This document shows, one piece after another, positions 20,348 through 50,096 of a stretch of 64,000 nucleotides of DNA. Below the pieces are notes generated by a model. That model made no database searches. It was not told where the DNA came from and was given only the letters and a program-made list of their open reading frames with translations. How positions within the stretch are numbered: the stretch's first letter is position 1; each line of letters starts with the position of its first letter. The position numbers and the translations under genes are program-made. Source of the stretch: an uncultured bacterium (GTDB lineage Bacteria; Babelota; Babeliae; Babelales; Babelaceae); NCBI GenBank assembly GCA_963717435.1, contig OY970332.1:1120001-1184000 (forward strand). The letters are read 5' to 3'.

Positions 20348-21352
20348 ATGAAACAAAAAATATTTTTTCTGCTTACACTCACAGCATATATTTCAAACTC
20401 AAATTGCATGGAAAACCCCGATCAAGACGAAGCAATTATTGGTGCCATTGAAAAAATGTTAAAAAAGCCAATAATTTTTAAACCAACATTTGATGACCTT
20501 TATGATGCGTTTGGGGAAATTCCGGCGCTCGGGCTAAGTCCCGATACCGCAACAGATTATTTAGTATCAGCCATAAAATCGAAAGATAACTCCGAAAAAA
20601 CAAGGGCCACTATTAACAAAATTATGATATTGAAATTATTCACACCCGATAATAGTGGTGGCCGAGATGGTCATTCAACAACAACGCGCGATACCATTCG
20701 CAATGTTTCACTTTATTTAGACACATTCCCAAAAGTGATCAATGCAATTTGCGATGCTGATCCAAAAGACTTAATTTTGAAATCCGCATGGCTAATATTA
20801 AGCACAATGCCAAGTTTGTACGAAATTTTCTGCGAATTTGGTTTTATAAAGAACAAAGATAATTCGCAAAGTGATAATCGCGACTTCGAACTTGAGCTCT
20901 ATGGCACTAAGGGACAGGAATATTTGGATAAATATTTGGCGTTAATGGCAAAAGTTGTCCAAACTGATTTTGCACAGCAGGGAATTATGCTGACAAGGCT
21001 TGTTCAAAAACTGGGCGACAATGTTGATTTTTTGAATTATGTCGACGAGCAAATTGAAGAAATCCCATTGTTTAAAAACAAAATAGAAGTAATACGCGAA
21101 CAATGGAAAATGTACAACTTAGCCACTGAAGAATTTGAAACAGTTATGGAAATGGACAGTCGAATTCAGACCATAGAAAAAGAAATCAACTTAATACATG
21201 AGGAAATTCACAAATTTAGCCAACAAGTTTTAGATAGCAGTCAAACAAAGCCGATTACAACTAACAGCACAATTGCAAATAATCTTCTAGATTTGGGTGA
21301 ATTTGAAGAACCAAACAGCGATCAAAAAGATGAAGTTGGCAAGACAAATTAA
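20348..21352 (+). CDS. Hypothetical exported protein (signal peptide ending SNC-ME)
   Basis: Long ORF with signal peptide and a coiled-coil/acidic C-terminus. Confidence 0.7.
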   Translation: MKQKIFFLLTLTAYISNSNCMENPDQDEAIIGAIEKMLKKPIIFKPTFDDLYDAFGEIPALGLSPDTATDYLVSAIKSKDNSEKTRATINKIMILKLFTPDNSGGRDGHSTTTRDTIRNVSLYLDTFPKVINAICDADPKDLILKSAWLILSTMPSLYEIFCEFGFIKNKDNSQSDNRDFELELYGTKGQEYLDKYLALMAKVVQTDFAQQGIMLTRLVQKLGDNVDFLNYVDEQIEEIPLFKNKIEVIREQWKMYNLATEEFETVMEMDSRIQTIEKEINLIHEEIHKFSQQVLDSSQTKPITTNSTIANNLLDLGEFEEPNSDQKDEVGKTN

Positions 21353-21530
21353 AACCGAGTAAGACAAATATTTTTTCACAGCAAATATTATTTAGAAGCA
21401 AAAGACATTATCACCAGATCGGTGATCTCTTTTTACCCAAATTACGCAGTACTGGGCTATGTTGTAACAATTGCTTACGCGCTTTTTTATATTCTTTGAA
21501 AGCCCTTTTAGCTTCTTTGGAGATCTTGCA

Positions 21531-22586
21531 CTAATTGAAAATGTAATATACAGCACAGGCTAAAACTATAACAATTATGGGGCTGCCTACTTTGAAACAT
21601 GCGCCTGAACTCAATTGCAAAGAATTTTTCTTGTTAGTAATTCCGTGATTTTCAAAATAACGAACCTGGGAGAGTTTAAGACTTTTTAATAAAACTGATG
21701 AGTCAATGATCATTTTAGTGGACTTTTCTCTAAAATTAATATCTACAGCGAATTCCACAATATTATCCAACTCAGAATATGAAAAATTCTCACAACCTTG
21801 TGCAAGGGTCTCCAACGTTCTTTTATCAAGTTTAACTTCAAAACCTTCCATATCTTTCAAATGAAATTCCAAAAATTTCAAACGATGTTCGTAATCGGGA
21901 AGGTCTATTTTTATTAAATGACATTGTTCAATAACACTATTATGCATTAAATCTAGCCTATCAGTAACAAGAATTACGAACAATTTGGGGTTGTTTTTAG
22001 ATTCATCTAATTTTTCTATAAAGGTCCTACACGCTTGAACATATTCTATATTTGCTTCATGAATGGTTTTATAAGAAAGACCATCAGCCCAATCAATAAA
22101 AATGATGCACGATTTATCACAATTTTTTGCCATATCAAATAACCTGCGCACATTTTTTGATCCGGAACCACGATATTTAGTCACATAACTAAAGCTTGCC
22201 TTTTCAAAAAGAACTCTACCAGTTTCGCTAGCAATTATTTTTGCTAACATCGATTTGCCTGTTCCATTTTTCCCATGTAATAATATTCTATTATTTATAT
22301 TAGGATCCATTCCAGCAAGTTCATCCATTTTTTTAATATTAAAAATAACAGCTTTTATTTCATCAGGCAGTTCGCCAATATAGTCTTTCAATCCCACAGG
22401 CCTAGTTGGATCAAAGAAATTTTCTTCTTGTTCTTCTAAACACGAGTTACACAAAGAATCGCGATTGACTGTTACAGCCAAGGGCACTCTTACCCCATTG
22501 TTAGAATTCTCCATCGATTTCGAATTAAAATTCAATAAAACAAAAATCGCTATTAATTGTATTTTTATAAAATTTAACTTGTGCAT
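21531..22586 (-). CDS. Exported AAA+ ATPase-like protein with degenerate Walker B and C-terminal TM
   Basis: ILLHGKNGTGKSMLAK, KYRGSGSKNVRRLF..AK, IIFIDWAD, I.LPD...R; signal peptide ending SKS-ME. Confidence 0.85.
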   Translation of the reverse strand: MHKLNFIKIQLIAIFVLLNFNSKSMENSNNGVRVPLAVTVNRDSLCNSCLEEQEENFFDPTRPVGLKDYIGELPDEIKAVIFNIKKMDELAGMDPNINNRILLHGKNGTGKSMLAKIIASETGRVLFEKASFSYVTKYRGSGSKNVRRLFDMAKNCDKSCIIFIDWADGLSYKTIHEANIEYVQACRTFIEKLDESKNNPKLFVILVTDRLDLMHNSVIEQCHLIKIDLPDYEHRLKFLEFHLKDMEGFEVKLDKRTLETLAQGCENFSYSELDNIVEFAVDINFREKSTKMIIDSSVLLKSLKLSQVRYFENHGITNKKNSLQLSSGACFKVGSPIIVIVLACAVYYIFN

Positions 22587-22729
22587 GAAATCCTTCGTGC
22601 TTAAAAAATATTTTGAATTAATAATTGCAAACTAGCATATCAAAATACTGGCGCAAATAAAACAATCGATGCTTAAGATTTTAAACATAAAAATAGATTT
22701 CAAGGGCATTTTTTCACAGCAAAATATTA

Positions 22730-48574: not shown

Positions 48575-48620
48575 AAAACTATCTCCAAAAAAATTAATTT
48601 AAATTTTTTAAAAATTTTTA

Positions 48621-49430
48621 TTATTTATTTGTTACTTTAATCTCCTGAAGCCTATTTTGTAACTTTTCAAGTTGCGCCATTAGGGTTTCATTTTGATTTT
48701 TCAACTGTGTATTTTGACTACGAAGCAGACCGTCAGCGCGCGAAGATTTAATATCACTTTGGCCACTGAGATCTTTTAACTGTTTTTCTGTCTCTGCGAT
48801 ATTTTTATTAACTTTTTTTAACTCTTCTTTTTTATCTTGTAATAGCTCTGAAAGTGAAAGTCTAACCTGAATTTGTTGCTTGGCATCACGATTTTTTTGA
48901 TCCTGCAAATCTGCTTCGATTAATAACTTATCGTAATCATCAGAAAATTGGTCCGACTTGGATGTAAATTGACGTTGCTGCGGATACTCTGGAAAAATAA
49001 TGTTATATTGAGCTGCAAGTTCTAGGGCTCTTTCAAGATCTTGCCCAGAAAATTGTTTGATCGATTTTTCCAAACTAGATCGAGTTGCTTTGATTTTTAA
49101 ATCTCTTTCAAATTCTTGCAACTTGGTTAATTTTGGAGCTTGGGATTGTTCAGATTTGAGAAGTTGTTTTTTGATATTTTTTTGCAGATCTTCTTGGCCC
49201 ACGATGTTTATGTTCTTAATTGTAGCTTGTTTTAAAGCCTCTTCTTGTTCAGACTCATTTTCAATCTCATAATACATGTCAGACAAGTGTGATGCGTCTG
49301 GTCTTGGTTTGTTAAGAGCCTCGATAAAATTACGATAAAGACGAGAACCGCCGGCTACCATTGAAAATAGATCTTGATTAAATACTGCAATAAAAACAAA
49401 AACAAATAATAATAACTTAGATAATTTCAT
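48621..49430 (-). CDS. Exported coiled-coil protein
   Basis: Signal peptide ending LFS-M; the coiled-coil C-terminus resembles that of 47906. Confidence 0.7.
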   Translation of the reverse strand: MKLSKLLLFVFVFIAVFNQDLFSMVAGGSRLYRNFIEALNKPRPDASHLSDMYYEIENESEQEEALKQATIKNINIVGQEDLQKNIKKQLLKSEQSQAPKLTKLQEFERDLKIKATRSSLEKSIKQFSGQDLERALELAAQYNIIFPEYPQQRQFTSKSDQFSDDYDKLLIEADLQDQKNRDAKQQIQVRLSLSELLQDKKEELKKVNKNIAETEKQLKDLSGQSDIKSSRADGLLRSQNTQLKNQNETLMAQLEKLQNRLQEIKVTNK

Positions 49431-49535
49431 AAACCCTCTTTAATAAAATATTAAAAAATATATTATTTAGATTTTAGCTATGAAAATTAAATTTAAGCAA
49501 TAATTTAAAATAATAATTTAAAATTTTATTAAAAA

Positions 49536-50096
49536 CTATTCTTGTTTGCCCAATTTTAATTCTTTAAAATCGCCCGACAGTTCTTCACCAGATCGTTCAG
49601 AATGAGATTCTTTTGAGATACAAAATCCAGTTGCAAACATGCCTAACGGGAACCCAAGAATAGCAAAAGCTCTGTCAAAAAGTTTAATCTCATCTTCAGG
49701 TAATTGTTCCCTAATAGATTGTAGCAGCTTAATTTTATTATTAAGTTCAAGTTTATTTAAGCTTTCATAAAACTTAGAAATAAACAGATTTAAATTATCT
49801 TGATTATTGTTGTAGACACCAAAATAAGCATTAAAAGATTCGATTACATCTGTACAATCAAAATCTGGTTTTATATTTGGCAATTTAAAAACTGCTTTTT
49901 GGGGCTTTTTTGCTTTCAGAGTAGTAACCGCTTTTACTGTTTCGGCAACGTCGGCTGGAACACTGCTATGAAACGTAACAGTTTTCTTAACTTTTTTGCG
50001 TGGAGGTCCCTGCTCGTAAACTTCCATGGAAAAAGAGGCTCTTGGGGATATAAAATTCAGGATAAGCAAAATAGGTAGTGCACGTAAGAATTTCAC
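49536..50096 (-). CDS. Exported protein with NLS-like motif
   Basis: Signal peptide ending SFS-ME followed by PPRKKVKK. Confidence 0.68.
   Translation of the reverse strand: MKFLRALPILLILNFISPRASFSMEVYEQGPPRKKVKKTVTFHSSVPADVAETVKAVTTLKAKKPQKAVFKLPNIKPDFDCTDVIESFNAYFGVYNNNQDNLNLFISKFYESLNKLELNNKIKLLQSIREQLPEDEIKLFDRAFAILGFPLGMFATGFCISKESHSERSGEELSGDFKELKLGKQE

Follow-up and report, generated by a model that had tools for sequence, protein, structure and literature searches.

A candidate Met-first rule at the signal peptidase I sites of effector-type exported proteins in part of the Dependentiae

Introduction

In the Bacteroidetes most substrates of signal peptidase I carry glutamine at +1, the first position of the mature protein, and this residue is cyclised to pyroglutamate (the Q-rule, as set out in the available parts of PMC5837995 and PMC10653852). 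Here we describe a rule of comparable form, with methionine at +1, on putative exported proteins of an uncultured bacterium of the Babelaceae. The starting point was a group of eight open reading frames (ORFs) at positions 20,348 to 50,096 of the stretch of DNA analysed (the window: 64,000 nucleotides, contig OY970332.1 of assembly GCA_963717435.1, positions 1,120,001 to 1,184,000). So far as those parts of the Q-rule literature go, the two rules are alike in being lineage-specific, in concerning the first mature residue of proteins with ordinary Sec/signal peptidase I leaders, and in being found in part of a larger clade; in both, the purpose would concern the mature N-terminus. They differ in the residue: the Q-rule has Gln, and the rule described here has Met, with Asp or Glu as the usual next residue. 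They differ also in reach, since the Q-rule covers most substrates whereas the Met is found on about 14-26% of leader-bearing ORFs and conventional envelope proteins avoid it. The Q-rule has its glutaminyl cyclase, whereas for the Met rule no modifying enzyme was identified, one GNAT candidate having been checked.

The leaders resemble those of classical Sec/signal peptidase I substrates, with a positive n-region, a core of ∼10 residues, a c-region of ∼5, Ile, Leu or Ser at -3, Ser, Cys, Gly or Ala at -1, and a single LepB to cut them. Met at +1 is, to our knowledge, rare in model bacteria. It is near background in relatives that lack the trait (3/125 strict junctions, as defined below) and frequent here, and Cys at -1 is unusually common in the genome that holds the window.

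Two eukaryotic systems also offer points of comparison. The PEXEL and RxLR signals of Plasmodium and oomycetes are likewise short N-terminal motifs on effector-type proteins, and processing gives these proteins a new, defined N-terminus; the signals differ in motif and in protease, and the carriers described here are bacterial Sec substrates. On the host side, the predicted mature N-termini belong in 48-76% of cases, across four genomes, to the class acetylated by NatB (Met-Asp, Met-Glu, Met-Asn and Met-Gln). NatB, however, acts on nascent host chains, whereas the proteins considered here would be delivered bacterial ones.

The Dependentiae, a phylum of protist parasites, are widespread and have hardly been cultured. 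Signal peptides are encoded by as many as 44% of their genes, according to the available part of PMC6561590. No published description of a Met rule was found in the freely accessible literature, supplements aside, and the word 'methionine' occurs 0 times in the available text of PMC6561590 and PMC4378268, which are genome papers on members of the phylum. As far as we have found, the rule would be a second lineage-specific +1 rule, beside the Q-rule, and the first to be tied to a class of protein.

A Met junction across the genome

The genome-wide analysis covered the contig of 1,198,203 bases that holds the window, and this genome is labelled G000. Taking the longest ORFs of at least 60 amino acids from their most upstream start, and removing overlaps greedily, gave 1242 ORFs, of which 502 (40%) passed a crude leader filter that asked for positive charge in the n-region and for a stretch of 8 uncharged residues whose mean Kyte-Doolittle hydropathy is at least 1.9. 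This yield is near the 44% with predicted signal peptides given for another phylum member in the available part of PMC6561590. A strict junction was defined by Ala, Gly, Ser, Cys or Thr at -1, a residue of the allowed set at -3, and Met at +1. Such junctions are present in 94 of the 502 leader-bearing ORFs, about one in five. The first-pass annotation of the window had noticed eight ORFs in which a leader is followed by a small residue and Met; all eight are present with the junctions it described, but its count of eight carriers was far too low, there being about 94 or more genome-wide.

The junction consensus in G000 is [I/L/S]-x-[S/C/G/A]↓M-[E/D], where the arrow marks the predicted cut. 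Among the 94 junctions the commonest residues at -3 are Ile (26), Ser (21) and Leu (21), and at -2 Phe (20), Ser (13) and Tyr (11), while position -1 is Ser (27), Cys (27), Gly (19), Ala (18) or Thr (3); Met is at +1 in all 94 and is followed by Glu in 40 and Asp in 14. In the full set of 502 ORFs, Met makes up 7.0, 5.8, 4.8 and 4.8% of residues at offsets +5 to +8 after the end of the core and ∼1.5% elsewhere. It thereby fills 112 of the 2008 positions lying 5-8 residues past the core (5.6%), against a background of 1.59% (binomial p ∼6e-29). Unsupervised motif discovery by expectation maximisation on all 502 ORFs recovered core-N-[I/L/S]-x-[S/A/G/C]-M-E, with Met as the commonest +1 residue (0.18-0.21).

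The residue that follows the Met is also biased. Asp, Glu, Asn or Gln is found at +2 in 66%, 60%, 76% and 48% of the junctions of G000 and of three relatives, G004, G027 and G034, respectively, compared with a zone background of 20-26%, and the small +2 residues that would permit removal of the Met are depleted (13-22% vs 34-39%). Such a bias would fit an N-terminus that retains its Met in a cytosol and resembles the NatB-type proteins of the host. Acidic residues are more numerous in the first 20 mature positions of the junction set, with a mean of 3.41 vs 2.69 (p 6e-4). At -1, Cys occurs in 27/94 junctions of G000 but in only 3/40 of G004, 3/25 of G027 and 2/31 of G034, which indicates that this genome has its own preference for Cys immediately ahead of the cut. 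A signal at the nucleotide level was considered and rejected: in 41 junctions, vs 28.9 expected, the -1 codon ends in C, which is no more than a slight bias, and the pattern can be accounted for by the amino acids.

Cut site and leader architecture

Met residues positioned 4-9 residues past the core are closely coupled to their neighbours. The preceding residue is Ala, Gly, Ser or Cys in 72.9% of 129 such cases vs 27.4% of 2883 non-Met positions, an allowed residue stands at -3 in 89% vs 54%, and +2 is acidic in 45% vs 10%. Cut-site weight matrices were built from positions -8 to -1 only, with +1 ignored, and were trained either on 46 single-candidate sites from three trait-negative genomes or on 128 Met-free leaders of G000. 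Among the 157 ORFs with a Met in this zone, the best site fell exactly before the Met in 64 with the 46-site set and in 84 with the 128-site set (41-54%), while for the control residues Gln, Tyr, His, Gly, Thr and Val the same matrices placed it exactly before the residue in 4-19%. That the Met follows a signal peptidase I site, as the first-pass annotation had supposed, is thus borne out both by matrices blind to +1 and by the strong coupling to -1 and -3.

Junction leaders and other leaders are alike in core length (10.2 residues), c-region (5.4-5.5), total length (22-23) and composition at -6 to -2, and the junction set averages 2.0 Lys or Arg in the n-region, as the others do. The same architecture in both sets implies the same Sec/LepB route. 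LepB is single-copy in G000 (PF10502, E 1.3e-36; Table 1), and the family was found in 31/31 genomes searched. LspA and Lgt are present in G000. The strict lipobox L-[ASTVI]-[GAS]-C is absent from all 27 junctions with Cys at -1, and a loose form occurs in two of them, LPGC and ALSC; given LspA and Lgt, these two may be true lipoproteins. The LPGC sequence belongs to a junction protein with a Rotamase_2 domain (LPGC↓MD). No Tat twin-arginine motif was found in the n-region of any of the 94 junction ORFs, and RxLx[E/Q/D] shortly after the signal peptide is not enriched (5/94 junction ORFs vs 10/376 other ORFs).

First starts and inner ATGs

G000 uses Shine-Dalgarno sites, as indicated by G enrichment that peaks at -13 to -7 ahead of unambiguous starts. 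By eye, a purine-rich stretch lies at the right distance from the first start in 6 or 7 of the eight ORFs and from the inner ATG in 0/8. For a start-site weight matrix, half of the pinned ATG starts served as the training set and internal ATGs as the contrast. Held-out true starts (n=124) gave a median score of +4.39, with 85% above zero and 12% lacking any Shine-Dalgarno pairing, and the first starts of junction ORFs with ATG (n=77) gave +5.33, 95% and 9%. Internal ATGs (n=1500) gave -4.94, 10% and 40%, and the junction ATGs (n=94) gave -3.36, 16% and 76%, differing from true starts with p 1e-28. First starts show pairing of -5 kcal or better in 45% of cases, junction ATGs in 1%. Hexamers of the -10 type at the spacing expected for a leaderless transcript are not in excess (TANNNT at 15% of junctions vs 23% of the predicted sites of Met-free leaders), and an internal promoter or leaderless transcript at the inner ATG was rejected on this ground. 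True starts are followed by Lys, Ile, Asn or Ser (Glu 4.6%) and internal Mets by Glu in 5.9% and Asp in 5.1%, whereas the junction Met is followed by Glu in 43% and Asp in 15%. By these measures the first starts behave as true starts, from which the leaders are translated, and the inner ATGs resemble ordinary internal codons. Together, the start-model scores, the lack of a -10 excess and the distinct +2 residues disfavour over-extended ORFs, dual initiation and simple fossil starts.

Dual initiation had been raised in the first-pass annotation as an internal start for a cytosolic isoform: the inner ATG would be a second start, Shine-Dalgarno-independent or leaderless, giving a product without leader. 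The inner codon is indeed always ATG, and the sole database homologue of the ORF at 20348 (P0002, 86% identity) has a public gene call that starts exactly at the junction Met. Within G000 itself that ORF has a Shine-Dalgarno-like GAGAGG before its first ATG and none before the inner one. Strong pairing is seen in only 37-45% of true G000 starts, so that its absence at the inner ATGs is not decisive. The scores of the junction ATGs nevertheless match those of internal ATGs rather than of true starts, most of them lack any pairing, no -10 box accompanies them, and a second start leaves the small -1 residue and the acidic +2 unexplained. We therefore set this proposal aside as very improbable.

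A fossil start is also unlikely, though less so. By this account genes that were cytosolic or had been acquired were extended upstream, or fused, so as to obtain a leader, and their former start Met was left behind at the junction without present function. It would suit the position of the Met, exactly at the junction of unrelated, fast-evolving and partly eukaryote-like genes, as well as the ease with which upstream AT-rich DNA encodes peptides rich in Lys, Ile, Phe and Leu and the mixture, within paralogue families, of members with and without the Met. It is opposed by the +2 residues, which are not those of true starts, by the absence of Shine-Dalgarno k-mers before junction ATGs (0% vs 4% of random internal ATGs) and by the tight coupling of the Met to a small -1 residue. 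Two further observations, detailed below, count against it: the junction Met outlasts internal Mets in diverged pairs, and the rule persists in four families as the preference at -1 shifts, from Cys, Ser or Gly in G000 to Ser in G004 and Ala in G027. An origin by leader capture could be compatible with a Met that is now under selection.

Conservation and distribution

The mature parts of the 94 junction proteins fall into 67 BLAST clusters, 57 of them singletons, and the leaders are unlike between clusters. Conservation was assessed in pairs from BLAST among the leader-bearing ORFs of five genomes, with at least 60% coverage of both proteins, most of these pairs being paralogues. Below 30% mature identity (66 pairs) a Met was retained at the aligned column in a fraction of 0.44 for the junction Met and 0.19 for internal Mets; the values were 0.52 and 0.29 at 30-50% identity (131 pairs) and 0.77 and 0.64 at 50-70% (22 pairs). 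In several of the listed misses the partner does have a junction Met, shifted by 1-3 columns. Some families do vary at +1, for example SNSNC↓MEN vs SNSNS↓LLS.

The same pipeline was applied to stretches of seven relatives, which were covered in part and are not independent of one another; families f3, f4, f11 and f15 were left out. Strict junctions account for 40/152 leaders (26%) in 400 kb of G004 (family f1, GC 27.6%), where -1 is mostly Ser, 25/136 (18%) in 400 kb of G027 (f10), where it is mostly Ala, 31/141 (22%) in 400 kb of G034 (f14), and 15/106 (14%) in 200 kb of G061 (f5), seven of the latter coming from one S↓MYAAQES paralogue family. The counts are 0/63 in 200 kb of G029 (f12), 2/34 in 100 kb of G053 (f12; ML and MA) and 1/28 in 100 kb of G019 (f2). 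The rule thus holds in the sampled stretches of four further genomes, which belong to three other families; three genomes, from two families, show background values. These three, run through the same pipeline, serve as its negative control and show the trait to be lineage-restricted. The leaders of G029 end conventionally, for example LYA↓AESE, and a scan of 59 of its 63 leader-bearing ORFs gave no match to Ank, G-beta WD40, RING or LRR families.

These counts also bear on whether the junctions arose by chance or as an artefact of ORFs called too long in AT-rich DNA. ORFs were begun at their most upstream start in every case, and AT-rich read-through can look hydrophobic. An artefact can, however, hardly account for the data: first starts bear normal start signals, the identical pipeline yields next to no junctions in the three relatives, whose composition ranges from AT-rich to moderate GC, and the excess of Met has the binomial probability given above.

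Matches to Ank_2 number 1, 4 and 5 in the genomes of f12, 43 in G000, 56 in G034 and 118 in G061. An Ank arsenal as the sole correlate of the rule was rejected, and the link between the two is loose, because the rule is found in G027, with only 9 matches, and is absent from the 100 kb sampled of G019, with 13.

Proteins that carry the junction

Pfam searches covered 92 of the 94 junction proteins, two that span tile borders having been dropped. A family was assigned to 30/92 at E ≤ 1e-3 and to 24/92 at E ≤ 1e-5, the latter being WD40 or propeller (7), Ank (7), AAA (3), LRR (1), RING (1) and one each of NADAR, CYTH, Beta_helix, Rotamase_2 and Thioredoxin. For comparison, 142 of the 269 Met-free, single-pass leader-bearing ORFs were taken at random as a control (150 drawn, eight spanning tile borders dropped). 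At E ≤ 1e-5, 48/142 have a family and 94/142 have none. Conventional enzymes or envelope proteins account for 34 of the control proteins, several normally cytosolic enzymes among them; examples are PBP transpeptidase, Peptidase_S41, OmpH, Amidase_2, GH3, GH1, S9, PLD, GDPD, CBAH and M48. Further control families are TPR (2), Ank (5), WD40 or propeller (2), AAA (3) and DnaJ (2).

When annotated proteins (E ≤ 1e-5) are divided into eukaryote-like and other, labels that were assigned after the matches had been seen, the junction set has 19 vs 5 and the control set 12 vs 36 (Fisher p 1.5e-5). Among all proteins scanned, conventional families make up 5/92 of the junction set vs 34/142 of the control set (p 1.3e-4). 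These tests indicate that the Met marks effector-like proteins and avoids conventional ones, in agreement with the first-pass annotation, which had contrasted effector-like exported proteins with conventional ones lacking the Met. The contrasting examples that it named in the window were found as described: SpoIID at 34999 (ISA↓G, PF08486), a barrel-like protein (LKS↓Y) and a WD40 protein (LFS↓D). Its term 'effector tag' is apt in so far as the carriers are effector-like. It is too broad as a general label, since about half of the sampled leader-bearing Ank/WD40/AAA proteins, most Pfam-less leader-bearing ORFs and two sampled families are without the Met.

Leaders are found on some unexpected proteins as well. 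IMP dehydrogenase, encoded in the window (PF00478, E 2e-149), has a Sec-like leader, MKDNMKQAKLLLTGLIFINIFSVNIFS, before its enzyme domain, and other normally cytosolic enzymes of G000 pass the leader filter, including epimerases, UDP-glucose dehydrogenase and guanylate kinase.

Export machinery

Secretin matches occur in 41/41 phylum genomes, two or three per genome. In G000 a GspC-like gene (T2SSC + PDZ), a secretin, PilM_2, a 185-residue ORF and a second secretin lie together (Table 1). The type II system is the sole secretion system found in another phylum member, according to the available part of PMC4378268.

The main alternative to a host-type N-terminus is a sorting tag read in a second step. 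After the LepB cut, the Met-acidic N-terminus would be read in the periplasm and would direct its protein to the GspC/twin-secretin apparatus or to vesicles, while other proteins stay in the envelope, a logic that resembles PEXEL or the Bacteroidetes lipoprotein export signal. The division between carriers and non-carriers would suit such a tag, the former being effector-like and the latter including the envelope enzymes PBP, OmpH, Peptidase_S41, Amidase_2 and SpoIID. So would the fixed place of the motif beside the cut, with acidic and polar residues after it, and a PDZ-bearing GspC-like gene that adjoins the secretins. We nevertheless consider a sorting tag unlikely. It is weakened by the families that lack the rule, which have the same twin secretins (2-3 matches each in G029, G053 and G019), and many leader-bearing Ank proteins and orphans are without the Met. 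Known type II substrates, moreover, are recognised in the folded state and not by a linear N-terminal tag. For the analogous +1 residue of the Q-rule, the available part of PMC5837995 argues against a sorting role.

Some further observations concern the same loci. The GspC/secretin cluster lies directly downstream of a junction-class orphan gene, and a Peptidase_M16 gene of 875 residues is found near it on the opposite strand. G000 also has two T2SSE-type ATPase genes. One is an intact frame of 401 residues; the other has to be read in several frames to match the family, contains 8 internal stops and is either a decaying secretion ATPase or the product of sequencing indels.

The eight ORFs and other loci

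The eight leaders have Lys or Arg near the start, an uncharged hydrophobic core, a small residue and then Met at residues 21-29 (Table 1). The domains that the first-pass annotation had claimed for three of these proteins, AAA, a weak Ank_2 and zf-RING_2, were recovered. The leader filter marks 20 ORFs as leader-bearing between 20348 and 50096 and flags seven of them as junction proteins; the ORF at 49536 was missed because its Met is 11 residues past the called hydrophobic core, just outside the search zone. The ORFs at 28335 and 29451 are paralogues in which the leader and the junction Met are conserved and the first mature residues differ.

Elsewhere in the same interval, two tandem pairs of small exported orphan paralogues, 45406+46034 and 33689+34121, have near-identical leaders and no junction Met. 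A LepA (EF4)-like frame appears split over three overlapping plus-strand frames, and is either a pseudogene or the result of assembly indels.

Table 1. Coordinates of the eight ORFs and of other loci named in the text. Positions are those of the window unless a prefix is given.
Feature	Position	Strand	Leader	Junction	Codon of junction Met	Family or remark
Orphan exported protein, 334 aa	20348..21352	+	20348-20407	SNC↓MEN	Met21, 20408-20410	no Pfam family
AAA-domain protein, C-terminal hydrophobic tail, 351 aa	21531..22586	-	22515-22586	SKS↓MEN	Met25, 22512-22514	PF00004, E 5.5e-21
Orphan exported protein, 324 aa	28335..29309	+	28335-28418	IHG↓MDM	Met29, 28419-28421	no Pfam family
Weak ankyrin-like exported protein, 237 aa	29451..30164	+	29451-29534	IHG↓MAE	Met29, 29535-29537	Ank_2, E 3e-5
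RING-finger exported protein, 118 aa	37715..38071	+	37715-37786	SWG↓MQE	Met25, 37787-37789	zf-RING_2, E 9e-7
Orphan coiled-coil-like exported protein, basic C-terminus, 222 aa	47906..48574	-	48500-48574	ILS↓MGN	Met26, 48497-48499	no Pfam family
Orphan exported protein, 269 aa	48621..49430	-	49362-49430	LFS↓MVA	Met24, 49359-49361	no Pfam family
Orphan exported protein, PPRKKVKK stretch, GTG start, 186 aa	49536..50096	-	50028-50096	SFS↓MEV	Met24, 50025-50027	no Pfam family
GNAT protein	2660-3382	-				
IMP dehydrogenase	8522-10048	+				
LepA (EF4)-like split frame	25920-27042	+				frames 26111-26542, 26463-26711, 26617-27042
Tandem paralogues 33689+34121	33689-34339					
Tandem paralogues 45406+46034	45406-46606					
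LepB	G000:C1:980804-981466					
GspC-like gene and twin secretins	G000:C1:586397-595272					
Junction-class orphan gene upstream of the cluster	L030 5301-6302					
T2SSE-type gene, broken	G000:C1:297436-298582					
T2SSE-type gene, intact	G000:C1:989676-990809					

Discussion

The reading that we favour, with a probability of about 0.62, is a Met-first rule in which a real signal peptide would be cut before a selected Met, the rule being restricted to effector-type proteins and the Met acting on the mature N-terminus. The leaders would be genuine Sec-type signal peptides, taking the pre-protein across the inner membrane by Sec; LepB, the one signal peptidase I of the genome, would cleave them off after the small residue and ahead of the Met. 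Selection in the exported subset would favour Met followed by Asp, Glu, Asn or Gln as the first two mature residues. The protein may then leave through the GspC/twin-secretin (type II-like) apparatus of the phylum, and the Met-acidic N-terminus would exert its effect on the mature protein and not on translation.

The function that we prefer, to which we would give roughly one chance in three, is that of a eukaryote-type N-terminus for proteins delivered to the host. To the host such a protein would have a NatB-type start, with a Met that is retained as the next residue is bulky and that caps an acidic start otherwise read as an N-degron. A bacterial signal peptidase may thus, tentatively, be used to make eukaryote-type N-termini that are NatB-acetylatable and outside the Arg/N-degron class, stabilising or activating effectors in the host cytosol. 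An exported GNAT acetyltransferase encoded in the window was considered as an N-terminal modifier and rejected, as it has weak generic matches only and a phyletic profile unlike that of the trait. This protein has an N-terminal leader and a C-terminal hydrophobic anchor, and no clear orthologues were found in 40 other phylum genomes.

Several points weigh against the Met-first rule or its proposed function. About half of the sampled leader-bearing Ank/WD40/AAA proteins have no junction Met, nor do most leader-bearing ORFs without a Pfam family, as the 94 family-less proteins of the control set illustrate. The interval of the eight ORFs itself contains six orphan exported ORFs without it (32246, 33293, 33689, 44813, 45406 and 46034). 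In G061 the preference at +2 is for Tyr and derives from its one paralogue family, and the Ank_2 counts of G027 and G019 run counter to an association with the ankyrin arsenal. The leader filter is crude, and its 40% pass includes some membrane anchors and possibly false leaders; the conservation pairs, being mostly paralogues, are not independent; and the labels behind the Fisher tests were given with the matches in view. As regards function, Ala, Ser or Gly N-termini are also stabilising, so that Met is not obviously required, and NatB normally acts on nascent chains.

For the biology of these parasites, the Met mark sets a large group of effector-like proteins apart from exported proteins of the housekeeping kind and so offers a way to rank candidate effectors, whose mode and place of action becomes testable. 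It also exposes a risk in annotation, since gene starts called at the inner ATG would hide the export signal. If the proposed function is true, the families without the rule would differ in their way of life or in their route of delivery.

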